The notes: a model not told the origin generated them from the sequence alone. 64,000 bases of DNA from Actinomycetota bacterium (GCA_036258795.1 DATACZ010000026.1:12552-76551), one strand, 5' to 3'; positions 6,109 through 59,148 are shown, counted from the first letter of the stretch. Numbers and translations: made by a program.

Positions 6109-6146
6109 CAGGCAGTCATTCCCGGGCGAGGAGGGCGGTCATCAGA

Positions 6147-8615: not shown

Positions 8616-8675
8616 AGCTCCCCACGGCAGGCAACAATCCAGCCTGAAGGGCAGAACGGGTCTACCATTGTTGTC

Positions 8676-24458: not shown

Positions 24459-24788
24459 GGTGCTGCGCGGGATCTATACTCTAAGGGGCGCTCCGTCTGG
24501 GTCTGTGGTTGCGGGGTTCACACCCCAAGTCCAGGCTAGTCGCAGGCAAAAGGATCCACGTAAGGCAACCATTGGTTGTTGAGCATGGTGCGGTTTAGAG
24601 GTCAGTCCTGCCTCGGGTGACGGGAAGCTCCCGGCACTTGGGAGAAGGTTCGAAGCACGGAATTTTGGTTATTCTTCCAGCAATGGGTCCCACTGGGGTT
24701 CGGGCTGGGTAACTCAAACCGTGCGAGGCTTCAGCAGGCGGATGTGGGGCCAAAGACCAGGTCAGCCGGACGGGAGGGCCCACAAGGG

Positions 24789-27965: not shown

Positions 27966-29083
27966 GGTTTTCGAGGATCTCAACCCTCGCCTCAAGGAGG
28001 CGTCGGTCAAGCTCGACGATCTAAAGGAGTTTCTTTGACGTCGATGCTAAGCAGGCTCAAGCCTTAAAGCTCGAGGAGCAATCCGCCGCGCCTGACTTCT
28101 GGGCGGACCAGGCGCGCGCCACCAAAGCCATGACGGAGCTCTCTCGTCTTCAGGATGACGTGTCGTCTTATATGGCTCTCGCCACCAAGCTCGAGGAGGC
28201 GAACCTGCTTTGGCTGCTGGCTCGGGAGGAATCCGACCGAGAGTCGTATCTCGAGGCCATGGCCGTTCTCGATGATCTCGATCGGGAGCTGGAGAGGGTG
28301 GAGGTAAGAACTCTCCTAGGCAGCGAGTATGACGAAGCGGACGCCATTGCAAGCCTTCACGCCGGCGAGGGAGGGACTGAATCCTGCGACTGGGCCGCCA
28401 TGCTGTTGCGCATGTATCTGAGGTGGGCGGAGAGGCAGGGGCTGGAGGCCGAGGTTCTGGACGTACAGCCCGGCGAGGAGGCCGGCATCAAGCAGGCCAC
28501 CTTTACCCTGAAGGGCCGATTCGCCTACGGACTTTTGTCTGCGGAGCGTGGTGTTCACAGGCTGGTCAGAATCTCGCCCTACGATGCCTCCAACCGCAGG
28601 CATACGTCCTTTGCCAGCCTCGACGTCATCCCTGAGGTCGAGGACAGCGTTGACATCAGCATCGACCCTGCGGATCTAAGGGTCGATGTCTTTCGTTCGG
28701 GCGGCCCCGGGGGCCAGTCGGTGAACACCACCGATTCGGCGATTCGCATCACGCACCTGCCGACGCGGACCGTGGTCGCAGTTCAAAATGAGCGCTCCCA
28801 ACTGCAGAACAAGGCTGTGGCCATGAAGATTCTGGCCTCTCGGCTGGCGGAGCGAGCGCGGCAGGAGAAGCGGCAGGAGCTGGAAGAGCTAAGAGGTGAG
28901 CAGATGGAAATCGGGTTCGGCTCTCAGATCCGGTCCTACGTTCTGCACCCCTATCAGATGGTGAAGGATCACCGTACCGGGGTTGAGGTGCGCAACCCCG
29001 AGGCGGTTCTGGACGGCGACATCGACGTGTTCATTGCCGCCGAGCTAAGGCGCAGACGCTCCACAAAATCGTCGAAGACCTGA
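27949..29083 (+). CDS. prfB: Peptide chain release factor 2, expressed via a programmed +1 ribosomal frameshift
   Basis: Frame 0 reads '[29 protein letters not shown]' and ends at CTT TGA C (28033-28039), preceded by the SD-like AAGGAG (28024-28029). The +1 frame continues '[28 protein letters not shown]...' into the table ORF 28130..29083, which has the GGQ motif. The start overlaps the secA 3' end. Confidence 0.9.
28024..28039 (+). promoter_or_regulatory. prfB autoregulatory frameshift site (internal SD AAGGAG - ttt - CUU UGA C)
   Basis: Exact match to the canonical RF2 frameshift cassette. Confidence 0.85.
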
Positions 29084-32701: not shown

Positions 32702-33060
32702 GGGGGCGAAACTGGTTTCGAGGCCGGTCGTTTCGTCTGGAGGAAGCGGGTCGAGGTCAGGGATCCTCGTTAAACCTGCCTGAACAATTAACTGAAACGT
32801 CGCTGCATAAGCGAGTTCCCATCTAGATAGAGATGGGCGTTCCACCCGGAAGGGCCTGCGGTCCGGGATGGGGCGTCATGCAGCAGGCTGGCTCTTGTCA
32901 CCCCCCGCCGGGCGGGGTGCAGAGTGAGACCAAAGTCCGGCTGGGCTCCGGCGAGCCTGCCTGCGGCAGTCGCCGGGTCGAGAGGTAAAAGCAGGCTATG
33001 CCCGTAGAAGCCCCAGAGGAGAGCTGTGTCGACGGGGGTTCGAATCCCCCCGCCTCCACA
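32702..33060 (+). ncRNA. ssrA: Transfer-messenger RNA (tmRNA)
   Basis: 5' GGGGGCGAAACUGGUUUCGA pairs with 3' ...GGGGGUUCGAAUCCCCCCGCCUCCA (T-arm and acceptor). Lies immediately downstream of smpB. The internal '...GUCGCUGCAUAAGCGAG' resembles the actinobacterial '...GCUGCCUAAGCGACG' tag end. Confidence 0.85.
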
Positions 33061-33373
33061 ATTACATAGATGTATTTGCGTGAGAGCTTTATGTCTTACT
33101 AGCTCCTGCTCCAATGTCTCTAACACTTGACCGGCTTGGGCTCGTCGGTGACAGGGCCATCAGGCCGTGGCTTCCGCATTCCGGCACTGCGTCCAGGTCC
33201 AACGGGCCAATATTTCAGGCGGCACCTGGGTAACTAAGTAATACAGCGGCCTTTCGGTCGATCAGGAAAGCGCACTCCGATCGGCCACCTTCTTCAAATA
33301 CGCACAGAGCAAACAACTCGAAGCCGAAGCGCTGGTTCTCATATCGGGGAAAGAGCGGAGGTGTCTGTAGGCC

Positions 33374-38878: not shown

Positions 38879-40339
38879 ATGCAAGAGCTGACCGAGTACG
38901 TTGAGGGCCTGCCGAATCTGTCCGGATCTGAGCAGTTGATCCAAGAGGCCATTGCCTCCGGGCGGGAGCGACCGGTGTTCCTGGGCCAGACCCCAGTCAA
39001 CATCGCCGACATCGACAGTGCGTTCGCCGTGGCCCTGCACATGCATCAGCCACTGATTCCTGCCGGCGGGCCGGATGTCAAGACTGCGGCAACCATCAGC
39101 AACCTGCAGTGGATGACCGAGAATCCCAGCCTGGGCGATAACCACAATGCCCCGGTGTTCCACTGGTGCTACAAGCGCATGGGCGAGTTCATCCCGCAGC
39201 TGATCGCTGAAGGCAAGCAGCCGCGGATCATGCTGGAGTACTCGGGGACCCTGCTCCACGGGATGCGGCGCATGGGCCTTAACGACGTGTTCGATGCTCT
39301 GAGGCCGGTCACCTGCGATCCCGATCTCAGATATGCGGTCGAGTGGCTCGGCTGCCCCTGGGGACACGCAGTCGCCCCCTCTACGCCGGTGCAGGACTAC
39401 CGGTTACACGTGCGAGCCTGGCAACATCACTTCGCCGCCATCTTCGGGCTGGATGCGCTCGGCAGGGTGCGTGGTTTCTCTCCCTCTGAGATGGCGCTGC
39501 CCAACCATCCCGATGTGGCTTACGAGTTTGTTAAGACCCTGAACGACTGCGGTTATCAGTGGGTGCTCGTCCAGGAGCACAGCGTCGAGCGTCCTGATGG
39601 AGGTCCGCTGGATGACAAGCACATCCCCCACCGTCTCGTCTGCACAAACTCCGAAGGAGAGACAGCGGAGATCGTGGCGGTCGTAAAGACTCAGGGCAGT
39701 GACACAAAGCTGGTGGCACAGATGCAGCCGTACTACGAGGCCAAGGGCCTGCAACGCTCCGACCTGGCCGGACGGGAGGTGCCGCCGCTCGTCACCCAGA
39801 TTGCGGACGGGGAAAACGGCGGGGTGATGATGAACGAGTTCCCTCCTAAGTACTTCGAGGTGGTCCGGGAGTGCTCCGGCTCACGCACGCCGATAATGAA
39901 TGTGACGGAGTATCTGGAGCAGGTGTTCGCTGCCGGGATCCAGCCTTCGGACCTGCCACCGATTCAGCCCCTCTTCCAGAACCGCATCTGGGACCGGATG
40001 GCGTCCGGCGAAGGCCCCGACCGGCTCTTTGAGGTCATCGAGCAGCTCCGGGCCGAGGATGGGCGTTTCCACATGGATGGTGGTAGCTGGACCAACGACA
40101 TCTCCTGGGTGCGGGGCTACGACCATGTGCTGATCCCGATGGACAAAGCCAGCTCACTCTTCCACGAGCAGGTCCTTACCCACGGCATTAGAACCGACGA
40201 TCCCCGCTACAGGTCTGGCCTGTTCCACCTGCTCACTGCGGAAACCAGCTGCTTTCGCTATTGGGGCGAAGGAGTTTGGACTGACTACGGCACCGAGCTG
40301 TCCCGTAGGGTCAACGACATAATCACCCACGACTTTTAA
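38879..40339 (+). CDS. Glycoside hydrolase family 57 protein
   Basis: 'FAVALHMHQPLIP' GH57 HxHQP motif. 486 aa. Confidence 0.8.
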   Translation: MQELTEYVEGLPNLSGSEQLIQEAIASGRERPVFLGQTPVNIADIDSAFAVALHMHQPLIPAGGPDVKTAATISNLQWMTENPSLGDNHNAPVFHWCYKRMGEFIPQLIAEGKQPRIMLEYSGTLLHGMRRMGLNDVFDALRPVTCDPDLRYAVEWLGCPWGHAVAPSTPVQDYRLHVRAWQHHFAAIFGLDALGRVRGFSPSEMALPNHPDVAYEFVKTLNDCGYQWVLVQEHSVERPDGGPLDDKHIPHRLVCTNSEGETAEIVAVVKTQGSDTKLVAQMQPYYEAKGLQRSDLAGREVPPLVTQIADGENGGVMMNEFPPKYFEVVRECSGSRTPIMNVTEYLEQVFAAGIQPSDLPPIQPLFQNRIWDRMASGEGPDRLFEVIEQLRAEDGRFHMDGGSWTNDISWVRGYDHVLIPMDKASSLFHEQVLTHGIRTDDPRYRSGLFHLLTAETSCFRYWGEGVWTDYGTELSRRVNDIITHDF

Positions 40340-40394
40340 AGGGCCATCAAGCCCTCACCGCATACGGAGCCGACCCCAGGTATAAATGACTCCC

Positions 40395-41456
40395 ATGGAA
40401 ACGGTCCGGCTCACCCAGTACTCGCACGGCGCCGGCTGAGCTTGCAAGCTCGGCCCCGGGGACCTGGCGCAGGTCGTGCGCCGCTTAGCCAAGAAACAAG
40501 GGAGCCTGGAGCCCAACGTGCTGTTGGGCCTGGACACCCCCGACGACGCTGCCGTGTACCGGATCGACGACCGCACTGCGCTGGTGCAGACGGTCGACTT
40601 CTTCACCCCCATCGTCGACGACGCCTACTCATGGGGAGCCATTGCCGTAGCCAACGCCATGAGTGACATCTACGCCATGGGCGGCAAGCCCCTGCTCGGC
40701 CTCAACCTGGTCGGGTGGCCCAAGGAGCTGGATCTCGATCTCTTGGGCAGCGTTCTGGAAGGCGGGGCCGATAAGGCTGCCGAGGCCGGGGCGGCGGTGA
40801 TTGGAGGGCATACCGTCGACGATCCCGAGCCGAAGTTCGGGATGGCGGTTACGGGGACCGTTGATCCGGACAAGATGACCAGATTGTCCAACGCACGCCC
40901 GGGCATGGGCGTGGTTCTCACCAAGCCCTTGGGAATGGGCATCATCTCCACGGCACTCAAGCGGGGCCAGGCCGACCCGGAGCTGGTGGCGGAGGCCACC
41001 CGCATCATGGCGGAGCTGAATGCGGGGGCAGCCCAAGCAATGCTCGAGGTTGGCGCTACGGCGGCTACCGATGTCACGGGTTTTGGCCTGATAGGCCACC
41101 TGCGTGGCATGGCTGCCGCGAGCGGATGCTCCGTTGAGCTATGGTCCGATGACGTTCCGGTCATTGAAGGGGTTCGAGATCTGGCGGAGCGCCAGCTCGT
41201 TCCCGGTGGAAGCCGTAACAACCAGCGCTACTTTGGCGGCTACGTGGACTTCGATTCCGAGGTGGACGACCTGACCAGGACGGTGCTTTTTGATGCCCAG
41301 ACGTCTGGGGGCTTGCTGATTGCGGTCCCGGACGACCGACTGCAGGACTTGCTGGAGGCGCTAGGAGCCAAGGGGACGTCTGTGCAGAAAGTGATAGGCC
41401 GCTTCTTGGAGGGGGAGGCCGGGCGGATGAGGGTGACATTGCGTGAACTCCGTTGA
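40395..41456 (+). CDS. selD: Selenide, water dikinase (selenophosphate synthetase), selenocysteine-containing form
   Basis: The table ORF (GTG 40476) is preceded in frame by 'M E T V R L T Q Y S H G A G U A C K L G P G D L A Q V V R R', with TGA ~40437-40439. 'GAG-U-ACK' is the conserved SelD active-site loop where Sec or Cys occurs. Downstream is the AIRS-like body. Confidence 0.85.
40440..40500 (+). promoter_or_regulatory. Putative bacterial SECIS hairpins downstream of the selD UGA
   Basis: GC-rich hairpins, e.g. GGCGCA-GGUCG-UGCGCC, lie 25-45 nt 3' of the UGA. Confidence 0.4.
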
Positions 41457-47252: not shown

Positions 47253-47303
47253 AAGTACCGGATTTCCAGAGGAGAAAGCCGGGGCGGTCCTTCAGCAGAG
47301 GGG

Positions 47304-47387
47304 TGCGGGCGAGAGGACTCGAACCTCCACGGGAGTCAATCCCACAGGATCCTAAATCCTGCGCGTCTACCATTTCGCCACGCCCGC
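47304..47387 (-). tRNA. tRNA-Leu (anticodon TAG)
   Basis: Reverse complement GCGGGCGTGGCGAAATGGTAGACGCGCAGGATTTAGGATCCTG-[long variable arm]-GGAGGTTCGAGTCCTCTCGCCCGCA. The GGTAGACGCG D-arm is typical of tRNA-Leu. Confidence 0.8.
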
Positions 47388-47506
47388 GCGATGTCGGTCT
47401 CAGAATAGCGGGGGCTGGCCACCCGGCGGCACAGTTGGGCGCAGCGACCTGCTGAAAGTTCTTATGGAGACCTTGGAAAGGTACGGGCTATGCCGACCCA
47501 GGGTTT

Positions 47507-47994
47507 CTAAGCCTGGCCGGTGTCCTGGCTCCAGAGGTAGTCGGGCGGAAGCTCTGCGTCGTCTCCCCACCTCGACATGTCCTCTGCATGAGTGATGGCA
47601 GCGCAAAGCTTGTCCGGAGTGAGCTGTACGCCTTCTAGGCTCTCGAGCCACTTTACGGTTCTTGGGTCCCGATCTGAAATCCCGAGGTCTTCAGCCCACT
47701 CCTTCACCGATATCGGGTCGGTCATCTTAGCCATCATCCGGTCACGATCTTGCTCGGTTCGGGTAGCCCGGACAGACTCCTGCGCTGCCCGGAACTTGCG
47801 GTCTAGCTGAAAGCTGTCAACGATACGAAGCTCTTGAGGTTCGGTCTTCAGCTGAATGGCCAGAGCGGCCCTGATCAGCTCCCTCGCCCTGGGCAGGGTA
47901 GTGGCCGAACAATGAACGCCCGGCTCCTCCGCGACCTGCGCTTTCCATGCTTCGCCGTCTCGCTCGTATACCGCGGTGTAGGTCTCGGTCACTT
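47507..47994 (-). CDS. HicB-like antitoxin-fold protein (UPF0150 N-domain + HTH-like C-terminus), apparently orphan
   Basis: 'TETYTAVYERDGEAWKAQVAEEPGVHCSATTLPRARELIRAALAIQ' matches the HicB N-domain. GTG start at 47992-47994 with GGGAGGAG 9 nt upstream. Confidence 0.5.
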
Positions 47995-48437
47995 TACTCA
48001 CTCCTCCCGGGCTTTCCGTAAGTTTCCCACGTTTCAGAAAGGACACAGGCAACCTGAAATTCAAGATCCCATTATCCGACTCCTGGAACATGATTGCCGC
48101 AGCGCCTTTTCTTGCGCACTGGCTGGCGGAAATTCCGTGGGCCCAGCTTTACACAATACGAACCTTTTCCACGCGGTCAAAGGTTTGACCTTCGGGTTAT
48201 GAGCCGCATGGTCGGGGGTTCGTGCCGTCCCAACGCGTCCCACGCAGTACCGCTCAGCAGGGCGTTCGCGCACTTGACGTCTCAGTCCGTACCACCGCCG
48301 ACCAGCCAGTAGCCGCCTGCGGTGTAGAAGAAGTGCAGAACCACCTCGCCTCGTGCTGCTACGTTCGCATCGCAGCTACCTGACCAGCGCCGCTCGGAAG
48401 TTCTAGACGATCCGCTCGCTTCCGGCTCCTCGCGATC

Positions 48438-49043
48438 TCACCCGGACTGCGCGAGTGGTGGGTGTTCCAGCACGCTGGGCCGGTACTCGACCAGTTGGAT
48501 GCGGCCATCGAAGGTGCGGCTGTCGATCATGTCGAGTGCGACGTCAGGGTAGCCGTCGTAGATGCGTTCGGCTCCCGTGGCGCCGGTGATCACCGGGAAC
48601 ATGACGACCCGGAAGCGGTCGACGAGGCCGGCTCGCAGCAGCGACCGGCTTAGGCTGATGCTGCCGATCGTGCTGATGAGACCGGAGCCATCCTCCTTCA
48701 TTACGCGGACCGCTTCGACGGCGTCGTCGCGCACGAGTGTGGTGTTGGCCCAGGCGAGGGGCTCCTTGAGCGAGGCGGAGAACACCACCTTCGACGCTCG
48801 CGTGAGTTCGTCGACGGACGACTCCTCGTCGGCAGTGAACTCATCTGTTCCCTCTGGGAGCTCGCCAGCGGCAAAGCCCGACATCAGCCGGTAGGTGTTG
48901 GCTCCCATCACGTAGGTGACCTCGGGTTGCTCGCCGAGCCAGGCGAGGTACTCGGGCCCCTCGAGCCCCCACCAGCCGGGCCAGCCTTCCGCCGACGCGT
49001 AGCCGTCGAGGGAGGTGATGAAGTCGACCATCAGTTCTCGCAT
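48438..49043 (-). CDS. Dihydrofolate reductase family protein (RibD C-terminal/YwjB-like)
   Basis: 'MRELMVDFITSLDGYASAEG...VVFSASLKEP...GSGLISTIGSISLSRSLLRAGLVDRFRVVMFPVITG' matches this family. Confidence 0.75.
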   Translation of the reverse strand: MRELMVDFITSLDGYASAEGWPGWWGLEGPEYLAWLGEQPEVTYVMGANTYRLMSGFAAGELPEGTDEFTADEESSVDELTRASKVVFSASLKEPLAWANTTLVRDDAVEAVRVMKEDGSGLISTIGSISLSRSLLRAGLVDRFRVVMFPVITGATGAERIYDGYPDVALDMIDSRTFDGRIQLVEYRPSVLEHPPLAQSG

Positions 49044-49590
49044 CGTGGTCCTCCTGGAACGACGGAACGGTTGTCACGCAATGTGTGCCGGTGTGTCCTT
49101 GCCGTTCCCGAAATCATCGCATTGATCTGCGGCGACGTTGAGTCGGCGCCGAGGAGGCCAGGCTCGGGGGTTAACCAGCGCGGCGCTTCTTTGTCACGGG
49201 CCGCGGCGCGGGCTCACGCAGCCGCCCGAGCGAGTCTGTCATGGCGAGGCTGGTTCCGGCAGTTGGGCTGCCTGACCACCTTCGTGGTCGGTGGCCGGCC
49301 CGGCAAGAACTTCGCGTGGACTTTCCGAAGGTAAGCAAGCGCGGCCTTCTGAGGACCCGACCGACAAGCGGGCGGATCCGGGCCCCCACAGCCATTGCTC
49401 CCAAGTCGTGGCGCTAAGAAACAAAGACTGGGCGGGCCAACCTCCTGTCGTGCTGTCCGACAAGGCGCAATCTAAAGCAACAAGTTAGAGGTCGCCCCCA
49501 AATAGGTCCTCGTGTGACCCATGTTCGGTCGCCTGTCAGTCGCGGCTGGCATCCTGAATCAGTACGAAGCACGAGAGATAGAAGCAGAAC

Positions 49591-49839
49591 GTGATCACAC
49601 CGGAGATTACAGCACTCGCAACGCAACTCGCCGAGGCGATCACACGCAACGCCGCTAGTGCCGTAGCGAGCAAGGTGAGCGCCATCCGGGCTCGTAAGGT
49701 TGATCAGGCGACTATGAATGAGTTGATCGAGCTCGTGAACGACTTGATCGCCGACAAGAACGAACTCGTCGGCCTTGCTCAGGCATTTGAGCAAGAACTG
49801 GTTGCGCAGCAGATCTCGGAAAAGGACAGAGTCTGGTGA
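49591..49839 (+). CDS. Small hypothetical helical protein
   Basis: 82-aa ORF in a region of lower coding density. No motif. Confidence 0.3.
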   Translation: MITPEITALATQLAEAITRNAASAVASKVSAIRARKVDQATMNELIELVNDLIADKNELVGLAQAFEQELVAQQISEKDRVW

Positions 49840-50317
49840 CCGTCGAGGCCTTGACCATCATGCAGTTGGTCGGCTTCAACTTCCGACGAGCATCGGTGAA
49901 CCGTTGACCACCCTGGTCGAGCGATTGATCTTGAGCAGGATGCCTGCACCAGATCAGTCCGCTGCGCAACAGGCACTGCAACTTCGTCGGGAGGCGGCCT
50001 ACCTCGAAGCGTCGACCGACCCGGAAGCCAGACAACTGCTTCAGCAGGGCTGATTCAGCAGCGAAAGGCCCCACTGTGGCCTGTTCATCCTGGGTCGGCG
50101 CTCAGTTGACCACGAGGTAGCCTACGTCTCGCTCGGCGACGGGTACATGGTCCGAGACCATGGACCTTGAAGGGTCTTCTCCAGAGCCTGGTAGCGGACG
50201 TACGGGTTGGCGGACGACACTCCATAACGCCGCGTTTTCGAGTTCCAATGGGATCTGACGCGCACCAACCTTCAAACACCAACAACGAGGGACGGGTTCA
50301 TACACCGTCATGATCGG

Positions 50318-50389
50318 TGGGCCCCCAGGGATTCGAACCCTGAACCTATCGGTTAAGAGCCGAGTGCTCTGCCATTGAGCTAGAGGCCC
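50318..50389 (-). tRNA. tRNA-Lys (anticodon CTT)
   Basis: Reverse complement GGGCCTCTAGCTCAATGGCAGAGCACTCGGCTCTTAACCGATAGGTTCAGGGTTCGAATCCCTGGGGGCCCA. Cloverleaf with a CTCTTAA anticodon loop. Confidence 0.8.
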
Positions 50390-50398
50390 ACGATGAGT

Positions 50399-51117
50399 CT
50401 ACCGAACGTCCCATGGTCCATTGGCCATAACGTCAATCCAACCTTTGACGCGATGAAGGAGGTCGGCGCTGCGCGTTACTCGAATGGAGCAGGTGCCGTG
50501 GTAAAGCACGTTCTTCCTGTGCCCAGTGCCCTCAGTCTTTACATAGGTCTTTCGAAACTGATTTAGCGGTATGCCGGTAACCGTGGACCAATAGCTTTTA
50601 ATTTCGGCCTCTGACAATCCATCGTGGATATTGAGCGACATCCGGAATCTGTCGCTGGTGAGCTGCAGATACGACGAGGACCATGCAAGAAACACCAAGA
50701 CGAGTCCAGGGTCCGAATCGTGAATTGCAGCCGGTTGAGCCGCTTTGCTCCCTCTGCCCAGTAGGCCACCACGCCTGCCACCCAAAATGGGTCAGACAGC
50801 AGCGAAAAGGCCTCCGATCGAGCCGCAGCTCGTATGGCTTCTACGCGGCGCAGGTTGCGGTTGTGAAGAGTAAGCCCAGCCTGAAGCCGACTAGCTTTGG
50901 CGTTGTTCAGTGCCCGCAGCCTGGCCTCTTGTTCGGGGCTCAACCGAATGTCACGGCACCAAGCCGAGAGCGTTCCCCTGGAGACCGGGATGATCTGGCC
51001 AATTTCTCGATAGGACAAGCCCAGCCTTCGCAGGGACTCGGCGAGCTCCCGCCGCTCCCATCGCTTCAGGACCGGCCACAAGGGTGCCTGGGTGAGGAGC
51101 TGTGGCGGAACCTCCAT
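50399..51117 (-). pseudogene. HTH-domain protein (IS630/homeodomain-like winged HTH at the N-terminus) disrupted by a frameshift, located between tRNA-Lys and tRNA-His
   Basis: ORF 50563..51117 ('GLSYREIGQIIPVSRGTLSAWCRDIR') and ORF 50399..50785 ('...YHGTCSIRVTRS...') are on the same strand in different frames and overlap. Confidence 0.45.
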
Positions 51118-51187
51118 GAAAGGAATTGTGGGGCGTGTAGGTGACAGATTTAGGTTTAAGGGTCCGCACGTGCAGATCCAGAGCTAG

Positions 51188-51261
51188 GGTGACCGACGGG
51201 ATTTGAACCCGCGACATCCTGGACCACAACCAGGTGCTCTACCAGCTGAGCTACGGCCACC
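51188..51261 (-). tRNA. tRNA-His (anticodon GTG) with an encoded G-1
   Basis: Reverse complement G-GTGGCCGTAGCTCAGCTGGTAGAGCACCTGGTTGTGGTCCAGGATGTCGCGGGTTCAAATCCCGTCGGTCACC. The extra 5' G and the C73 discriminator are diagnostic of tRNA-His. Confidence 0.85.
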
Positions 51262-51361: not shown

Positions 51362-52555
51362 ATGCGGAGCTCTGCCGACGTGATCGTCGTGGGCGGCGGA
51401 ATACTGGGATGTTCGGTCGCCGCGGAGCTAGCCGAGATGGGCGCCGACGTGGTCTTGGTGGAGAGAGCCGAGATCGCTCACGGCGCATCAGGGCGCAACC
51501 ATGGTCTTATCTTCTACCCGCTGAATCCCATCACCGACGCCCTTTACAGGACTTCTCTCGAGATGTATCGCCAGGTTGCGTCATCGCCGGACCTGGACAT
51601 CGAGCTCGACGAGAAGCCGGTGGGCTTTCTAATCCTCGTAGCGCGGGAGGACGAGTGGCCTGTGGCCTTGGCAGAGGCGTCCGCTTGCCAGGTAGGCGGA
51701 AAGGAGGTCCGCCGGGTGGACCGAGGGGAGCTTCATGTCCTGGAGCCCAACCTTTCAGACACGTTCGACGGCGCTTATCTGGTCGAAGACGGGTACCGAG
51801 TCGATCCCCAAGCGCTGACGCTGGCCTTTTCCCTCCTCGCCCAGGCCGATGGAGCCGACGTCGAGACCCATACGGAAGCGAAGCGAGTGATTGTTCGTGG
51901 TGACCGTGTTGAGGGGGTAGCGACCGACCGTGGCCTGATCCATTCGAGGATCGTGGTACTCGCCACCGGGCCCTGGGCCCCAAAGCTTGCTAGGACCGCG
52001 GGAGTCGACCTGGATATTTCCGGAGCCAGAGGCTGGCTGGTGCTAACAAGACCGGCTCCACCCCTGTGCCGCCATGTTCTAGTATCGGCCGGTTGGCACC
52101 TCGTCACGGGAGTCGAGGGACCGGCCGAAATCACGCTGGGGGCGTATGCGAGGGGAGATGCCCCGGTTCCCTCAGACGTCGGCCTTCTTATTCAGCAGAA
52201 CGCTTCAGGGCATGTGCTGTTGGGGGGGTCGCGCTCCGTATCCGTAAGGCAGGACCCTGAGGGCCCAGAGGTAACGAGGGAGATAGCCAGGCGTGCCGTG
52301 GCCGCTCTACCGGCCCTGGGCCCTATTCCCATAACCGAGGTTCGGTCGGGGGTAAGGCCGATGAGTCCCGATGGGTCTCCATTCATCGGGTGGGTGCCGG
52401 GCGTGGAAGGGCTCTTTGTGGTCGGAGGGCATGGTGGGCAAGGGATCATGCTTGGCGGAGGCAGCGCGAGGCTGGCGGCCCAGATGATCCGAGGAAGGAC
52501 GCCTTTTACGGATCCATCCCTTTTTGCCCTCGACCGGCTTAGTCCTGGACGATGA
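51362..52555 (+). CDS. FAD-dependent oxidoreductase, DAO family (glycine/sarcosine oxidase-like)
   Basis: 'DVIVVGGGILGCSVAAELAEMGADVVLVE' dinucleotide-binding motif and a C-terminal 'GHGGQGIM'. Confidence 0.8.
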   Translation: MRSSADVIVVGGGILGCSVAAELAEMGADVVLVERAEIAHGASGRNHGLIFYPLNPITDALYRTSLEMYRQVASSPDLDIELDEKPVGFLILVAREDEWPVALAEASACQVGGKEVRRVDRGELHVLEPNLSDTFDGAYLVEDGYRVDPQALTLAFSLLAQADGADVETHTEAKRVIVRGDRVEGVATDRGLIHSRIVVLATGPWAPKLARTAGVDLDISGARGWLVLTRPAPPLCRHVLVSAGWHLVTGVEGPAEITLGAYARGDAPVPSDVGLLIQQNASGHVLLGGSRSVSVRQDPEGPEVTREIARRAVAALPALGPIPITEVRSGVRPMSPDGSPFIGWVPGVEGLFVVGGHGGQGIMLGGGSARLAAQMIRGRTPFTDPSLFALDRLSPGR

Positions 52556-52579: not shown

Positions 52580-54010
52580 TCAGGATTCGGTCGGATTCCT
52601 CTCCAGGAGCACGCTCATGCCGTCGGAAAGCTGAGACATCCGGCCCAGAAATAGGCTTCCCTTGGCGAGCATATGCACTCTTTGGGCGTCTCCGGTGGTG
52701 AGACGGCGCAGAGCGTGCGGAAGATAACAGATCGCCGAGGCGAGGTGACCCTGCGTGGGGGCGAAGCCAGGCATTCCTCTCTCGGCCACAAACTCGTCGA
52801 TCTGGTCCTTTGACATCTCGCCCTTGCGGGCCGCCAGGCTTGCAATCATCCGGTAGTTGCGTTCGGGAACGTTGCCCGAGCCCTGTGGCTCGGTAACCTC
52901 GGGATCGTGCAGCTCGGTGGCGTAGTCGTCCACTTCCAGCATTGAAATGCCGGTGCGCTCCAAGGGCTCGACGGCCAGCGCCTGCATGATCTGGGGGTTG
53001 GAGCCTCCCATCGCAACCCGGTGCCGGCCAACGGTATCCAGCCGAAGGAGCGGTGAGGCCCCGTCGTCGGCCTCGATGAGAAGAGCGACCCCGCCCATTA
53101 CGTCCTCTAAAACCGGAAGGTCGTTGCGAAGATGCCCCTGGAACTTCATTCCCAGCTTTGGAAGGGAGCCGCCGGCAGCGACGGCCACCCTCTTGAAGAC
53201 TCCCGAGTTGACCAACGCACCGGCGAACACCATGGCCGGTAGGGGAGCCGCGCAGAAGTTCTTGATGTCGGCCCCAGAGGACTGTGTCAGGCCGGCTAGG
53301 GATGCCATAGCCTTGGCCATGTTCCCCCCGCCCCGTTGATAACGGTCGCCCACTGCTTCTTCCCCGCAGGTAAGTACGAAGTCGATCGACTCCGGATCGA
53401 TGTCGTGATCTTCGATCAGGTGCAGCAGGGCGAGTACTCCGGTTGCCTTGCAGGCAAGGTTCTCGAGCAGGATGTTTGCGGTAAGTGACTCGTCTTCGGA
53501 GTGAGCGGTCTTGACGGCGCCGGCAACCTCCTCGCCCAGGTACAGGGGCAAGCCCCCGGTCTCGGCTCCCGCGGCCTCGGCATCCTCTGCAACGTTTTCC
53601 AGGCGCTCTAGGTTGAACTTCTTGGATAGAGGGTGCTTCGCCAGCGCCTCTGCCGCCCGTTCGGCTACCGGCCCGTCCAGGACGATCAAGCTGAACTCGT
53701 CGACTGCGGCCATCAGCCCTAGAAACTCCTCCTCCGGCATCGCCTCGCCATCCGGCGTGAAGCGTGAGCTGCCTGGGACGGTCTTGCCGACCCTGGGACG
53801 CTCGGGCATCTCGCGGGGATGGATAGCACCCAGATATGCCTGATTGGGGGGATAACCCATGGCTTCATCGAAGCTCCGAAGGCTCGAGAGGAACTTGGAC
53901 TTCTGATCCGGGTTTTTGGGCAGCTCCCGCGACGGCTTGGACCCGTACCGGGCCAGGTTCGGCGTGTGGGCAAGGATATGGCTTGCTGCAGATACGACGG
54001 GTTTGGTCAC
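52580..54010 (-). CDS. Glycine/sarcosine/betaine reductase complex protein C-like (GrdC-like, thiolase-fold with 'NFCAA' Cys)
   Basis: N-terminus 'MTKPVVSAASHILAHTPNLARYGS' resembles GrdC (from memory). Starts 11 nt downstream of grdB. Confidence 0.6.
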   Translation of the reverse strand: MTKPVVSAASHILAHTPNLARYGSKPSRELPKNPDQKSKFLSSLRSFDEAMGYPPNQAYLGAIHPREMPERPRVGKTVPGSSRFTPDGEAMPEEEFLGLMAAVDEFSLIVLDGPVAERAAEALAKHPLSKKFNLERLENVAEDAEAAGAETGGLPLYLGEEVAGAVKTAHSEDESLTANILLENLACKATGVLALLHLIEDHDIDPESIDFVLTCGEEAVGDRYQRGGGNMAKAMASLAGLTQSSGADIKNFCAAPLPAMVFAGALVNSGVFKRVAVAAGGSLPKLGMKFQGHLRNDLPVLEDVMGGVALLIEADDGASPLLRLDTVGRHRVAMGGSNPQIMQALAVEPLERTGISMLEVDDYATELHDPEVTEPQGSGNVPERNYRMIASLAARKGEMSKDQIDEFVAERGMPGFAPTQGHLASAICYLPHALRRLTTGDAQRVHMLAKGSLFLGRMSQLSDGMSVLLERNPTES

Positions 54011-54023
54011 ACCAATTCCTTTC

Positions 54024-55316
54024 CTATTCGGTCGATGCCGGTTCGAACACCGTGGGCTTTTCGACTTCGGTGGAGATGGCCGTTAGTGCGGTCTCCAGCA
54101 ATTGCCGGCGCCACTCCTTTTCCTGATCCGGAGCGAGGCTGGGATCCCCTGCAGGGTATGGGATGCCCCTCGTCGGAACGATGCGGGGCGCGCCGACCCT
54201 GCTTGCGATCGGCACGAGGTTGCACAGGAGGGCGGTCGGAATGCCGGCCCTCTCCAGCTCTTTGGCAAGCGTTGACCCGCAACGCGTACCCGTCCCTCAG
54301 GTCGAGGTGAGGATGGCGGCCTGAACGCCGGCCTTGCGAAGCTCCTCGGCCCACTCGACCCCGTAGCCGGAGGCTGAGTCGATGGGCATGCCGTTTCCGA
54401 CCGTGACCAGATACTCGGAGTGCAACTGACCAATACGGCCCTCTTTCTCCATCTCCCGGGCCACGTCCAGGGGAAGAATCCGGTTCGGGTCCTCGTTGGC
54501 TTTTACGGTCGAGAACCCGCCGTGAATCGATTGAAATTCGCCCGCCGGCATGCTTTCCCTTTCCTCTAACGGGTACCGCAGCCACCGGGTGGCCCGGGAG
54601 GACTCCAGCCGGCCTGGATTTCCGTTGGGAACAAGCCCTCCTTCAGTTAGGAGGGCGATCAGGGCGTCCGCGGGATCGGACACCGGCGGAGCCGGCTCTA
54701 CGGTGCCGAAGTCGGGAAGTGGGATCTCGGTTGCGCTGCTGTCGCCGCCAAGGCGCTTCAGCGCCAGTGCAACCGCCCTCGTGGCGGCGTTGTCCTCAGC
54801 CATGCGATTTCGACGTGGACCCTTTCCCTTGATGGCATTGGGAATCTCTTCTCCGGCGGCTAGCTTGGCGACCGCGTCGGCGATTGCCTCCAGGGCGTCG
54901 CCCATCTCCCTGGCGGTCTCGCCGGTTGGAACGACCGGTGCTGAGCCTGCCTCCGCTACCCCAGGGTTGTCTGGGTGCATGGCCGCGAGGGTCTTGAGCC
55001 CTGCCTCGAAGGCGGCCGCGGCCACTCGCCCGCAAGCAATGCCGTTGCGCCCGCTGGTGAAGGCCGGACCGGCAATCAGAATCTCGGCATCCGTTCCCTT
55101 TACCAGCTCCAAGATCTCCTCAGCGGCGCCGTCCTTTGACGCTGCGTAGTCGTCGCCGCAGGACACCGTGGCTATGATCTGGTGCTGGTCCCCGAGAAGC
55201 GAAGCAAGCTTGCGGCCGGGGCCCAGCGGCTCTTCCTTGAGCTCGGGACCCGCGTTCGCGGAGTCCTCTCCGCCTATGCCGGCGAAGAACTGGTTGATGT
55301 AGTGGACGATCTTCAA
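54024..55316 (-). CDS. grdB: Glycine-reductase-family selenoprotein B (GrdB), with selenocysteine encoded by in-frame TGA at 54297..54299
   Basis: The table ORF 54297..55316 ('MKIVHYINQFFAGIGGED...AAILTST*') stops at TGA. The same frame continues 'U-GTGTRCGSTLAKELERAGIP...IPYPAGDP...TEVEKPTVFE*' (table ORF 54024..54215). This matches the GrdB 'VILTSTUGTCTRCGATMVKEIERVGIP...TVFE' architecture. Confidence 0.85.
54260..54296 (-). promoter_or_regulatory. Putative SECIS hairpin 3' of the grdB UGA (GCGUUG-CGGGU-CAACGC)
   Basis: A 6-bp stem with a G-rich 5-nt loop begins ~13 nt downstream of the UGA on the mRNA. Confidence 0.45.
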
Positions 55317-56590
55317 CTCGCGGCTTCCTCCCAGCAGGTCAAGCGCCCCCAGCCCAGTGGGTTGAGTGATCCGTATACCGCTGCCGTCTGGAGGCTCAGC
55401 TCAGCAGTCGAGGGGTCATCGGTAAGGTCAAGGATCTCACCTCCGAGCGCGCGCTCTACGGCATCGAGCTTGATGATCTCATCGTAATTCCCGGCGCTAA
55501 CCAAAGCAGAGCCCTTAGTTGGTGGAGATACGAGGGGGGGACCGGATCCGTCCGGACCTGCCATCTCACCGTGGATTGAAACAGCCTTGATGCCCATGGC
55601 CTCGCAGGCGTCGGCCTTTAAAGAATTGTCGGAGTCGGCGTTGCCGCCCCCCTCCTTGGTCAGGATGACCGCATCCAGACCGAGGCTGGCGCACAGGCGG
55701 GCGGCATGCTCGGATATCAGCTCCTTGTGAGCCTGTTCCACGGGCTCGGGGGAGAGGATCAGGCCGGCAAAGTCCAGGTCTTGCCCATCCCGTGCTCGAA
55801 GAGCGGCCACCACAGGGTGGTTCTGGTAAAGGTAAGTGTTGTTCTTGAGCCCCGGGTGTCCGTACTGACCGCTCACCACCGCCCCATCTTCCAGCTCACT
55901 TGGATCCATGAGGGTGGGCAGAGAATCCGACATGGAACGGCCGTATACAAAGACGTCCTTGAATGTTCCCTGAGTCTGAAGGTTCGTGATGGTTCCGATC
56001 CGGGGACGGTCGCCGGGAGCAGGGGTAGTAGTGGGCGCGACTTCTCGCTCTTCATCGGGTTCAGACTCGAGGGCAGCCTCGGCCAGGCGGGCGGCGAGCT
56101 TGAGGATTCCGCGGCGAAGGGCCAGGTCGACGTCCTCCCAGGCGGCTCCCTCTGCGGGCTCGAACTCGACCACCAGATTATGGGTGCTGCCAAAGGGTGA
56201 CAGCTCCGCGGCCGGGCCCGACATTTGAATCAACCCTTCCTGGAGCCTGGGCAGGTATCCGGCAGAGATCACCGCGGCTCCCCTTAAGACGTGGGTCTCT
56301 CCCCGTCCCTGCGGCATGGCCTTGCCGAGGAAGCCGGGGAAGATTCCAGCACCTTCAGGGCCCTTGGTACGCGGCTGTACCGCGTCGAGAACCTTGATCA
56401 CTCGGGCACTCTCCCCGGGTGAGATCCAGGACACGTTGGTCGACGCCAGCGCGCGGCTGGAAAGGCATGCCTTCGCCTCATCGGCAGAGACCGTGAGCCT
56501 TCCGCCCTCAAAGGTCGTGGAATCGCCAAAGCCCACCGACTCGACGTCGTGGCAAAGCAGTTTGAGAGGGCCTACTTCCTTATCTGTCAT
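55313..56590 (-). CDS. grdE: Glycine-reductase-family proprotein GrdE-like (protein B alpha/beta precursor)
   Basis: 'RVIKVLDAVQPRTKGPEGAGIFPGFLG...THVLRGAAVISAGYLPRLQEGLIQMSGPAAELSPF' parallels GrdE 'RIAPVKDVIEPRVKVEGSGAMFPGM...THALVGSTVL...GFQEGVIDMSGPIAKY'. The stop overlaps the grdB start. Confidence 0.75.
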   Translation of the reverse strand: MTDKEVGPLKLLCHDVESVGFGDSTTFEGGRLTVSADEAKACLSSRALASTNVSWISPGESARVIKVLDAVQPRTKGPEGAGIFPGFLGKAMPQGRGETHVLRGAAVISAGYLPRLQEGLIQMSGPAAELSPFGSTHNLVVEFEPAEGAAWEDVDLALRRGILKLAARLAEAALESEPDEEREVAPTTTPAPGDRPRIGTITNLQTQGTFKDVFVYGRSMSDSLPTLMDPSELEDGAVVSGQYGHPGLKNNTYLYQNHPVVAALRARDGQDLDFAGLILSPEPVEQAHKELISEHAARLCASLGLDAVILTKEGGGNADSDNSLKADACEAMGIKAVSIHGEMAGPDGSGPPLVSPPTKGSALVSAGNYDEIIKLDAVERALGGEILDLTDDPSTAELSLQTAAVYGSLNPLGWGRLTCWEEAAS

Positions 56591-56736
56591 GGGCGGTTAC
56601 CTAGCTTTGAGATACCCACGTTTTGGCCAGCACATTCACCGACGATCCTTCTGTACCCAGGAGCATGCAAACTCCCAGCCGATCAAGGAACCGTTCGCCC
56701 TCTCGAATCGCTGTGGGCGAGCGAAGCCGGCCGGCG

Positions 56737-58161
56737 CTAGCTGAAGTGACGCCTCAGCACCGTCCGGGCTGCGTGAAAACCGCACATCCCGTGCACGCCC
56801 GCTCCCGGCCGTGTGGACGATGAGCAAATGTAGATTCCTTCGGCGGGGGTTCGATAGGGGTTCAACCTCGGCGCCGGCCTGGCGAAAAGCTGACGCAGGT
56901 CCTGCAACCCACCAACGATGTCTCCCCCCACACAATTTGCATTGTGCCGTTCCAGCTCTGCAGGGCCCATGGCACTACGGGCGAGCACGAGGTCTTTAAA
57001 GCCGGGAGCGTAACGCTCGATCTGCCGCTCGATGGCATAGGTCATGTCAACGTCGGACCCATTTGGAACGTGGCAGTATCCCCAGAGAGTCTGCTTGCCT
57101 TTAGGAGCCCTCGAGTCGTCGAACAAACTCTGCTGAGCCACGATCACATAAGGCCTCTGCGGGTGGACGCCCTTGAAGACCCACTCCTCGGCTTCGGCGA
57201 TTTCGTTCAGGCTTCCCCCCAGGTGGACCGTTCCTGCGAGAGCGCAGAGTTCCGACTTCCACGGAACCGGCCCGTCCAGAGCCCAGTCGACCTTGAAGAC
57301 GCCAGGGCCGTGCCGGTAGTTCTCCAGGGTTCGAACATATCTGTCAGGTAGCTGGCCCCCTGCAAGGCGAATGACCTGCCGCGGATTAACGTTCAAAAGA
57401 GCGACCCTGTGCTGGGGAAGCTGACCCAGAGACTCCACCCGCTCCCCGGCGAGTATGTGACCGCCCAGTGTCTGGAAGTAAGAGACAAGGGCATCGGCAA
57501 TTTTTTGGGACCCTCCTCTCGCCAACGGCCATCCCACTGCATGCCCAAGAAACCCCAGTAGAAGGCCGAAGCCGCCGGTCGGGCTCTGGTCGAGGGGAAG
57601 AATGGAATGAGCTGCCAGACCTGCCACGAGGGCTCGAGCCGGCTCGCCGGTAAACATGGCTCTGGCAAGACCGGTGGCCGACCTGATGCCGGCAAGCGCA
57701 AAGCGGGCCATTAGCAGAGGGTGACGGGGAGGACGGAGCGGCCCGAGTACTTGATCGATTATTTGGCTCCATCCCCGAACCAGCGGAGTCATGAGAGACG
57801 AGTAGGCCCACGAGTCGTAGGCGAGTCCAGCCGCGGTCACATCCACAGATCTTCTGAGCACCACGGCGCCGCCTTCATCGAGCGGATGAGCCACAGGGAT
57901 CGGAGGCTGTACCAGCTGGAGGCCGTGCTCCTCGAGGGGCAGTGCTCGAAAAACAGGCGAGCACAGGGCCATTGGATGGATAGCCGAACAGACGTCGTGG
58001 ACGAATCCCGGAAGGGTAAGCTCCGCCGAGCGCATCCCTCCTCCGAGGTCCGGCTCCGCTTCCACCAGAAGTACCGAGACGCCCGCCTGCGCCAGCGTGA
58101 CGGCCGCCACAAGGCCATTGGGCCCTGCGCCCACCACCACGGCATCGTAGCTATCAGTCAT
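56737..58161 (-). CDS. FAD/NAD(P)-binding oxidoreductase, phytoene-desaturase (CrtI)-like family
   Basis: 'YDAVVVGAGPNGLVAAVTLAQAGVSVLLVEA' Rossmann motif. 474 aa. Confidence 0.75.
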   Translation of the reverse strand: MTDSYDAVVVGAGPNGLVAAVTLAQAGVSVLLVEAEPDLGGGMRSAELTLPGFVHDVCSAIHPMALCSPVFRALPLEEHGLQLVQPPIPVAHPLDEGGAVVLRRSVDVTAAGLAYDSWAYSSLMTPLVRGWSQIIDQVLGPLRPPRHPLLMARFALAGIRSATGLARAMFTGEPARALVAGLAAHSILPLDQSPTGGFGLLLGFLGHAVGWPLARGGSQKIADALVSYFQTLGGHILAGERVESLGQLPQHRVALLNVNPRQVIRLAGGQLPDRYVRTLENYRHGPGVFKVDWALDGPVPWKSELCALAGTVHLGGSLNEIAEAEEWVFKGVHPQRPYVIVAQQSLFDDSRAPKGKQTLWGYCHVPNGSDVDMTYAIERQIERYAPGFKDLVLARSAMGPAELERHNANCVGGDIVGGLQDLRQLFARPAPRLNPYRTPAEGIYICSSSTRPGAGVHGMCGFHAARTVLRRHFS

Positions 58162-58257: not shown

Positions 58258-59148
58258 ATGGTCAAGGCCTACAAGGTTGGATTTCAGGGTGAGGCAGGCG
58301 CCTACAGCGAGAAGGCCGCCAAGCTTCTCTTTCCACATGCTTCCTTCATGCCGTTCAGGTCGTTCCACAAGGTGTTCGAGGCCACCGAGATCGGGGCGAC
58401 CGACTTTGGGGTTGTGCCCATCGAGAACTCTCATGCCGGGTCGATAAACGACACCTACGATTTGCTGGTCCGACACGGGGTGCAAATCGTTGCAGAGACC
58501 ATAGTGCGCATCTCCCACTGTCTGCTGGCTGCCGACGGCACCTCCATGGCGGACGTAAAGCTCGTCTACTCTCACCCACAGGCGCTGGAACAGTGCGAGG
58601 AGTTCCTGGACGCCATCCGGGCGGAGAGAATGGCGGTTTACGACACTGCGGGGGCGGCTCGGCTGGTGGCTGACGAGAAAAAGCCAGGCACCGCGGCTAT
58701 TGCCTCGGAGGAGGCCGCCGCTCTCTACGGCCTTCAAGTCCTGGCCCAGGACATTGAGGATCGAGCAGACAACTCGACCAAGTTTGTAGCGATAAGCCGG
58801 AGCGCCACGGACCTGATGGGGCCGCCCGAGAAGACGTCGATAGTCTTTGCCACCGGGAACGTGCCCGGCGCCCTCTATGCCTGTTTGAGAGAATTTTCTG
58901 AGCGCCAGCTAAACCTTACGAAGCTGGAGAGCCGTCCCTCGCGGGCACGGGCCTGGCAGTATCACTTTTACCTGGATTTCGATGCGCCGACGAGTGACCC
59001 GGCGGCTCAAGATGTCCTCGCCGCGCTTGCGGCTCAGACCTCTTTTCTCAGGGTCCTCGGCTCTTACCCGCACGCAGTCACTACGGATTCCAAGAAGCCG
59101 GTACAGAGCCGGGGAGCGCCCTTTTACGGTGGCTCGAAGGGTCTCTAG
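58258..59148 (+). CDS. pheA: Prephenate dehydratase
   Basis: PDT domain 'VGFQGEAGAYSE...VPIENSHAGSI' and a C-terminal ACT domain with the ESRP motif 'TKLESRPS'. Confidence 0.9.
   Translation: MVKAYKVGFQGEAGAYSEKAAKLLFPHASFMPFRSFHKVFEATEIGATDFGVVPIENSHAGSINDTYDLLVRHGVQIVAETIVRISHCLLAADGTSMADVKLVYSHPQALEQCEEFLDAIRAERMAVYDTAGAARLVADEKKPGTAAIASEEAAALYGLQVLAQDIEDRADNSTKFVAISRSATDLMGPPEKTSIVFATGNVPGALYACLREFSERQLNLTKLESRPSRARAWQYHFYLDFDAPTSDPAAQDVLAALAAQTSFLRVLGSYPHAVTTDSKKPVQSRGAPFYGGSKGL

Follow-up and report, generated by a model that had tools for sequence, protein, structure and literature searches.

We investigated a selenium-dependent operon in a 64,000-nucleotide (nt) stretch of the genome of an Actinomycetota bacterium (GCA_036258795.1, DATACZ010000026.1:12552-76551), referred to below, at its full length, as the window. 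At positions 52,580 to 58,161, genes for homologs of the glycine reductase proteins GrdE, GrdB and GrdC follow a gene for a CrtI-like flavoprotein. We consider it reasonably probable that they provide a functional protein-B/GrdC module of a Grd-type selenoenzyme, which relies on a selenoprotein A (GrdA) and a thioredoxin from genes at other sites in the genome. Reductases of the Grd type are considered rare enzymes of anaerobes that ferment amino acids.

The locus at 52.5-58.2 kb consists of four co-oriented open reading frames (ORFs) on the minus strand. In the direction of transcription, they encode a CrtI/amine-oxidase-family NAD(P)/FAD oxidoreductase (56737-58161; 474 amino acids (aa); Pfam NAD_binding_8 and Amino_oxidase), a GrdE-like protein-B subunit of a predicted non-pyruvoyl type (55313-56590; 425 aa; Pfam Gly_reductase PF09338, 340 bits), a GrdB-type selenoprotein B (54024-55316; 430 aa; Pfam GRDB PF07355, 375 bits) and GrdC, a protein C beta-type subunit with a thiolase/FabH fold (52580-54010; 476 aa; NF040746, 567 bits). 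A convergent gene for a DAO-family flavoprotein lies beyond grdC (51362-52555, plus strand; PF01266, 212 bits). All five genes are at the positions given in a first-pass annotation of the window, and the GrdE, GrdB and GrdC identities it proposed are supported by profile hidden Markov model (HMM) scores (PF09338, 340 bits; TIGR01918, 436 bits; NF040746, 567 bits). The tight packing it described stands for the 4-nt overlap of grdE and grdB (TTGA); the spacer between grdB and grdC, which includes GAAAGGA, measures 13 nt rather than 11. The CrtI-like gene is separated from grdE by 146 nt, and the stop codons of grdC and the DAO gene are 24 nt apart. Three independent Logan assemblies contain the junction between these two convergent genes, and one JGI contig and one Logan contig contain that of CrtI, grdE and grdB; since identical junctions are found in independent JGI and Logan assemblies, the arrangement is real and not an assembly artefact. 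A scan of 51.0-58.6 kb found no promoter-like site and a single terminator-like site, fewer than in shuffled sequence, and is uninformative on both counts.

The grdB gene starts at a TTG overlapping the grdE stop codon, ends with TAG at 54024-54026 and contains an in-frame TGA at 54297-54299, at the position of selenocysteine (Sec) 340 in the motif ILTST-U-GTGTRCG. Alignments of GrdB by tblastn pass this TGA and reach residues 425-427 in every relative. The codon is invariant in 46 distinct homologous sequences, in line with the Sec codon annotated earlier. A 17-nt hairpin resembling a selenocysteine insertion sequence (SECIS; GCGUUG-CGGGU-CAACGC, 54269-54285, minus strand) begins 11 nt past the UGA. 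Across the 46 sequences, the third positions of codons +4 to +9 after the TGA (ACG CGU UGC GGG KCA ACG) are 98-100% conserved, against merely 46-65% for flanking residues that are equally conserved, and the sole variant observed in the stem turns a U-A pair into U-G. The hairpin has a minimum free energy of -12.8 kcal/mol and makes up 90% of the ensemble; single-sequence folding downstream of the TGA gave z-scores of -0.2 and -1.2, which are not significant alone, so that the case for a SECIS is made by synonymous-site conservation and not by folding energy. In sum, grdB displays what is expected of a bacterial selenoprotein gene, namely an in-frame UGA, a stem-loop at 11 nt and a selenophosphate synthetase gene (selD) in the window. 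This pattern of conservation indicates that the TGA is genuinely read as selenocysteine.

We then placed GrdB within its superfamily. It scores 436.5 bits (cutoff 65.45) against TIGR01918, which covers the Grd/Prd selenoprotein B superfamily, and the earlier placement holds at this level. At the level of equivalogs it does not: GrdB stays below the cutoffs of the GrdB (TIGR01917, 401 versus 602 bits), GrdF (NF040794, 427 versus 800) and GrdH (NF040795, 381 versus 775) models, and reaches 78 bits with the PrdB model (cutoff 300). The canonical GrdB motif after Sec is UxxCxxC (PMC13188914). In the window and all 46 relatives it reads U-G-T-G-T-R-C, that is UxxGxxC, with Gly at the first Cys. The longer published GrdB motif, YxNx6GGE...CGD...GPxF[NF]AGRYG...AHGGxD[QTAP]x8RV[IL]PxD...TxGNxTxV (PMC9751293), is kept in its first two elements; the others read GPAFTSGRNG, IHGGFS and TVGNGMPI. 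Matches to the GrdB and GrdF motifs of that publication (PMC9751293) are confined to their N-terminal portions. Since GrdB falls below every equivalog cutoff and matches the motif in part, the actinobacterial enzyme is, on these profile and motif comparisons, a distinct branch of the Grd family. Sequence searches of the Protein Data Bank (PDB) with the GrdE-like protein, GrdB and GrdC gave no matches.

The partner subunit differs from canonical GrdE at the site of pyruvoyl formation. In Clostridioides difficile GrdE, Cys242 was found as a pyruvoyl group (PMC9908766). Aligning the window protein with 125 full-length sequences, each representing a 50%-identity cluster, placed Tyr243 (SGQ-Y-GHPG) in the column of the pyruvoyl-forming Cys. 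Eight of the 125 representatives carry a Cys in this critical column (at positions 229-251), seven of them within SGN-C or NGC-C, and the five of these eight that were scanned with the GrdG model scored 412-631 bits. The window protein scores 241 bits against GrdG (NF040793, cutoff 780), 145 against FarE (NF053623, cutoff 675) and 44 against PrdA (cutoff 700). The 18 actinobacterial sequences compared from the GrdE-like family have no invariant Cys. The first-pass annotation had called this protein a proprotein; because Tyr243 replaces the processing Cys, we predict that it is not one. There is precedent, as GrdI and FarE were reported to lack processing cysteines and not to be proproteins, and FarB to have lost the CxxC after Sec (PMC10838667). 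Separately, three database proteins (P0242, 798 aa; P0279, 774 aa; P0350, 789 aa) consist of a GrdE-like domain fused to a GrdB domain ending at the Sec position; in other lineages, these may be genuine gene fusions or products of read-through in gene calling.

GrdC scores 567 bits with NF040746, above the cutoff of 450 (Pfam DUF5940). Its AlphaFold model (mean predicted local distance difference test, pLDDT, 81; predicted template modeling score, pTM, 0.87) matched FabH, OleA and thiolases in Foldseek (E ~1e-11; probability 1.0 to FabH and OleA), and the thiolase fold proposed earlier can be retained. In this model, strand 245-249 leads into helix 256-268 through an elbow that holds the invariant Cys253, in a position like that of the KAS III nucleophile. 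A second cysteine, Cys428, is conserved in 46 of 48 sequences compared. The sole known role of GrdC is the processing of carboxymethylated GrdA.

We further investigated related loci, which are given L numbers below. Database searches at E<=1e-10 returned more than 1,200 GrdE-like and more than 6,600 GrdC-like matches, counting all clades and each among 8,000 candidates scored. About 40 related loci with enough sequence show a five-gene operon in the order grdE'-grdB-grdC-trx-grdA (type 1). Six species-representative genomes (L003-L008), belonging to Solirubrobacteraceae, Acidimicrobiia and unclassified Actinomycetota, share the grdE-grdB-grdC order with 58-63% GrdE identity to the window, and metagenome loci have 54-66% (tblastn); over all type 1 loci (L003-L008, L018-L099) the proteins are 54-68% identical (tblastn), and 58-67% in the six genomes. 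A Sec-containing grdA (ECFV-U-TASGAMDL) lies behind grdC in all six genomes, preceded in five by a thioredoxin gene (WGPDCxPC). In two long annotated contigs, Pfam finds Gly_reductase, GRDB, DUF5940, Thioredoxin and GRDA in one operon. Scanning metagenomes with a GrdA alignment, we kept the best 80 of 285 loci: 30 carry all five genes in order and the rest are cut by contig ends, except for four that are rearranged. Among these, grdC and the greater part of trx are deleted in L044; in L045, a fusion of the grdA'-'trx type stands ahead of a second grdA; L080 carries an orphan trx-grdA and L069 an orphan grdA with an aberrant N-terminus, the latter two with no grdC upstream. Since trx and grdA follow grdC in the five-gene relatives, the window locus is derived and truncated, and the system is not inherently GrdA-less as its annotation in the window had implied.

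Clustering of neighboring ORFs at 40 loci returned as recurrent the five operon genes, sel genes and, in Acidimicrobiia, a gene of the ODP family; no grdD-like or trxB gene recurred. The ODP-family gene, for an oxygen-binding di-iron protein (PF19583), lies directly behind grdA in the same orientation (L005, 14848-15582; L006, 14844-15578; L007, 14884-15624; L008, 14847-15587) and may be an oxygen-related accessory of the operon. In L066, 4 kb are inserted between grdB and grdC. One locus, L102 (154-609, ENA ERZ27247908 k141_167534), encodes a GrdA homolog behind grdC with Cys in place of Sec (PECFV-C-TAAGAMDL); an older survey had reported GrdA to be without Cys homologs (PMC1794560).

The window belongs to a sub-clade (type 2) found in five diverged lineages: the window itself, L009/L010, L014, L015 and L016/L017. 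Neighbor-joining trees of GrdC, GrdB and GrdE all recover it as monophyletic. Its G+C content is 0.61-0.67, versus 0.66-0.75 for type 1. In its loci, a divergent pheA is followed by the CrtI-like gene, up to two inserted genes and the grdE-grdB-grdC trio; neither trx nor grdA occurs in the flanking DNA. The prephenate dehydratase gene pheA (58258-59148, plus strand; PF00800 in L009, L014, L015 and L016) diverges from the CrtI-like gene and serves as a landmark for the chromosomal site at which the sub-clade locus is conserved, its orthologs in these four loci being 79-90% identical. The CrtI-like protein is likewise conserved upstream of grdE in L009, L014, L015 and L016 (61-84% identity), so that the co-oriented flavoprotein gene singled out in the first-pass annotation is a neighbor throughout the sub-clade. 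Its distance to grdE shrinks to 33 nt in L014, and genes are inserted between the two in L009, L015 and L016, including a 733-aa gene in L016. Because of these insertions, the CrtI-pheA pair may be merely synteny.

The second flanking oxidoreductase fared differently. The DAO-family protein, whose nearest PDB matches are glycine and sarcosine oxidases and which also resembles dimethylglycine oxidase, is where the annotation placed it; as a conserved partner it was rejected, being common to the window and L015 only (55% identity) among the four lineages with downstream DNA, and absent from the five-gene loci. The L009 contig ends inside grdB, and the DNA downstream of grdC is thus not covered there. 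The gene following grdC encodes a PDZ protein in L014 and a hydrolase fragment in L016. The DAO protein is probably not part of the system. Further downstream, the window and L014 share Ham1, which argues that the type 2 locus occupies one chromosomal site, between pheA/CrtI-like and Ham1/RNase PH.

The sub-clade keeps most of the positions that are at least 97% conserved in type 1, namely 149/163 in GrdC, 139/153 in GrdB and 72/86 in GrdE; among them are Sec340 and Cys346 (GrdB) and Cys253 and Cys428 (GrdC). At these positions no change is common to all type 2 members in GrdC or GrdE. Three are in GrdB (R162, R316 and F318); we rejected them as signs of a lost GrdA docking surface because these positions also vary in outgroup GrdB and because Arg317 is kept in three of the four lineages. 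For the window and L009, the ratio of nonsynonymous to synonymous substitution rates (dN/dS) amounts to 0.11 in GrdE, 0.10 in GrdB and 0.08 in the CrtI-like protein, at a dS of about 1; deeper pairs give 0.14-0.26 with dS saturated. These patterns indicate that the three type 2 genes are under purifying selection and functional, with no sign of a changed role. Window GrdB also carries R317G, at a residue otherwise invariant.

We searched the whole window for the missing partners. BLAST in six frames, made TGA-aware and using queries from the relatives, found neither GrdA nor the operon-type thioredoxin in the 64 kb; the same queries match every related locus with linked partners at 1e-37 to 1e-109. 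No WCGPC motif occurs in the window. All ORFs of at least 300 aa judged to be real genes (antisense shadow ORFs excluded) were scanned with Pfam or NCBIfam models or identified through an annotated L009 ortholog, and none encodes a Grd protein-C alpha subunit, TrxA/B, SelA or SelB; two (8676-10331 and 38879-40339) match no family. No GrdD-like gene was found in the window, nor a recurrent one in 40 five-gene loci, no GrdD query sequence being used. Within the reach of these searches, the reported lack of grdA, grdD and thioredoxin near the operon extends to the full 64 kb. For grdD it is no peculiarity of the window, as none is linked at any of about 100 related loci. A contig of the same organism adds about 6 kb beyond the right end of the window, with only rimP-nusA-infB-rbfA (to about 13 kb from the operon). 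A protein search with a GrdA profile was dominated by full-length sequences with TGA called as Trp. Two actinobacteria-like GrdA matches, L102 and L103, were rejected as the GrdA of the sub-clade, both lying behind a grdC.

The selenium genes are partly present. The window encodes selD (40386-41456, plus strand; TIGR00476, 348 bits, cutoff 125), with its own in-frame TGA at 40437-40439 (SHGAG-U-ACKLGPGDL), so that ORF callers start it at 40476. A Sec-type selD implies that the genome uses selenium. Family scans and ortholog identification of the real ORFs of at least 300 aa detected no selA or selB in the window, and no tRNA-Sec gene (selC) was found in the 64 kb. As the cell must also have selA, selB and tRNA-Sec, and these lie outside the window, the selenium island is dispersed in this genome. 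By comparison, L003 has selB, selA and selD (4757-9469, minus strand) right beside the grd operon, on its upstream side and in divergent orientation, its selD being 50% identical to that of the window; selD/selA/selB are also directly upstream in L034, L056, L058 and L085, and selD alone in L052. In these loci, the sel genes and the grd operon form a compact selenium island, of which the Grd enzyme may be the main selenoprotein client. Just upstream of the window selD, the 486-aa ORF at 38879-40339 matches nothing in Pfam or NCBIfam.

How could such an operon work? If the three genes form a module served by a GrdA from elsewhere, the trx-grdA tail and the sel genes would have become separated from the operon in a single event in the type 2 ancestor, and grdE'-grdB-grdC then retained at one chromosomal site. 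In analogy to betaine reductase, a GrdB selenolate at Sec340 would attack the C-alpha of an X-CH2-COO- substrate, and the carboxymethyl group would move to the Sec of the unlinked GrdA. GrdC would turn it into an acetyl thioester, for which its own thiolase-type Cys253 may provide the thiol, and oxidized GrdA would be re-reduced by thioredoxin. As grdD is linked at no related locus, GrdC alone may carry the acetyl thioester. The analogy makes a quaternary or otherwise activated glycine derivative the more likely substrate, rather than glycine itself, because its leaving group needs no Schiff base.

Several observations weigh against a module completed by a distant GrdA. Around the window operon (-52 to +13 kb) no GrdA was found, nor was one within +-10 kb of the L016 operon or on the contigs of L014 and L015 (11-14 kb), and no sub-clade GrdA locus was among the best 80 of the 285 metagenomic loci. 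With no grdD-like gene linked at any locus, the canonical acetyl-phosphate step is unaccounted for. GrdB remains under the GrdB, GrdF and GrdH cutoffs and departs from parts of the published motifs. Window GrdB is, moreover, unique at the otherwise invariant residues Y91N, T310M and V312I, which may reflect altered specificity or a slight relaxation in one lineage. We nevertheless favor a GrdA encoded elsewhere, because the constraint on GrdC is unchanged, the selenium island is dispersed and orphan (trx-)grdA genes exist in L069 and L080.

The best-surviving alternative, which we regard as unlikely though worth keeping in view, is a re-wired reductase that does without GrdA. GrdB would resolve its carboxymethyl-selenoether by itself through Cys346, handing the acetyl unit straight to GrdC, and the resulting Se-S bond would be re-reduced by another donor, perhaps the upstream CrtI-like flavoprotein or a general thiol system. 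This would fit with trx-grdA missing from every sub-clade locus, with the CrtI-like gene always upstream and co-oriented, and with an arrangement that has been stable over deep divergence (59-81% identity) under purifying selection. Proline reductase offers a precedent for a GrdB-like selenoprotein working without protein A (PMC3091704). It sits poorly, however, with a GrdC lacking any sub-clade-specific change at conserved positions and with the insertions that separate the CrtI-like gene from grdE in L009, L015 and L016.

Public annotation suggests a more conventional answer, a canonical pyruvoyl-dependent glycine reductase for Stickland-type energy conservation whose locus is merely split: PGAP-style names (glycine/sarcosine/betaine reductase component B; complex component C subunit beta) and KO-based JGI names both point that way. 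We find this very improbable, given the absent processing Cys in the GrdE-like protein, UxxGxxC in place of UxxCxxC, a GrdB score of 401 bits against a cutoff of 602, a published motif that fails at AHGGxD and GPxF[NF]AGRYG, and the lack of linked grdD in about 100 related loci. Least probable of all is an inactive remnant left after trx-grdA loss from a five-gene operon, which would explain the local absence of essential partners and the several unique substitutions at invariant residues of window GrdB, but is at odds with intact reading frames, TGA and SECIS-like hairpin, with a dN/dS of ~0.1 like that of the CrtI-like neighbor, and with the same three genes kept in five diverged lineages.

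We compared the window system with known ones. Glycine reductase (GrdA/B/C/D/E; EC 1.21.4.2) of Clostridia, Synergistota and Spirochaetes has homologous GrdE-family, GrdB and GrdC proteins, with GrdB Sec at 350/436 in C. sticklandii and at the equivalent 340/430 in the window, and in the relatives of the window the operon also has genes for a CxxU selenoprotein A and a thioredoxin. Unlike it, the window system has a GrdE-like protein without the pyruvoyl Cys, the UxxGxxC variant in GrdB, no grdD at the related loci examined and, in the window's sub-clade, no linked grdA or trx. The five-gene operons have trx without trxB, whereas glycine reductase has a dedicated thioredoxin/thioredoxin reductase pair, and they occur in soil Actinomycetota of high GC content that carry F420 genes. 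Betaine reductase (GrdH/GrdI; EC 1.21.4.4) shares a partner subunit without processing Cys (PMC10838667) and a Sec protein of the GrdB/GrdH type; the GrdH score (381 versus 775) sets the window system apart, which has no linked betaine transporter. Scores of 427 versus 800 and 241 versus 780 bits likewise separate it from the sarcosine reductase proteins GrdF and GrdG. With FarB/FarE of Cloacibacillus (Synergistota) it shares the Cys-less state of FarE and half of the CxxC loss of FarB, and differs in FarE score (145 versus 675 bits), clade and host. D-proline reductase (PrdA/PrdB) also has a GrdB-like selenoprotein, one that works without protein A or C; its similarity is weak (78 versus 300 and 44 versus 700 bits), PrdA is pyruvoyl-dependent, and the window retains GrdC. 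The closest match is the type 1 operon, in gene order, Sec motif, SECIS-like hairpin, Tyr/Phe at the pyruvoyl position and lack of grdD, from which type 2 differs by the missing trx-grdA tail and adjacent sel genes, the upstream pheA/CrtI-like genes and a lower G+C content.

The rest of the window is consistent with the F420-using actinobacterium described in the first-pass annotation, at least for the F420 part of that claim: it contains cofD (5185-6108, minus strand) and a gene for a fused CofG/CofH (FbiC-like) radical-SAM protein (6147-8615, plus strand), both for F420 biosynthesis. A raiA RNA motif (24492-24774, plus strand, 130 bits), a tmRNA (32702-33061, plus strand, 130 bits) and genes for tRNA-Leu, tRNA-Lys and tRNA-His (47302-51260) were also identified. 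The gene prfB for RF2, the UGA-reading release factor (28026-28039 and 28130-29083, plus strand), is preceded by a classical programmed +1 frameshift site, AGGAG-TTT-CTT-TGA-C.

Full-text literature searches returned no description of the actinobacterial clade, of a non-pyruvoyl GrdE of this kind, of a trx-containing, grdD-less operon or of the truncated sub-clade, and nothing relevant on glycine reductase in Acidimicrobiia, Thermoleophilia, Rubrobacter or related taxa. In public annotation, the proteins carry generic names for glycine/sarcosine/betaine reductase components. According to one survey, GrdB and GrdE co-occur in only a small number of species of natural habitats, with a count of 107, or 0.35% of GTDB species (PMC9751293). 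A GrdB survey filtered by the published motif would omit the sequences described here, as they do not fully match it.

Altogether, our analysis points to a sister Grd family in many soil Actinomycetota contigs, with 285 GrdA loci in one metagenome scan and a signature of its own: no pyruvoyl Cys, UxxGxxC, thioredoxin within the operon and no grdD. If active, the enzyme would provide a reductive route dependent on selenium in organisms generally regarded as aerobic, with trimethylamine or ammonia, plus acetate or acetyl phosphate, as candidate products, and knowledge of its substrate and products would bear on soil carbon, nitrogen and selenium turnover. The sub-clade is a natural experiment in which protein B and GrdC persist without a linked, or perhaps any, selenoprotein A. 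There is a small chance that this soil lineage runs a non-pyruvoyl protein B (GrdE'/Sec-GrdB) and GrdC on an X-CH2-COO- substrate independently of selenoprotein A, drawing electrons from a flavoprotein, namely the CrtI-like neighbor, or a general thiol system. More broadly, the type 1 parent clade would represent a widespread, unstudied soil selenoenzyme.

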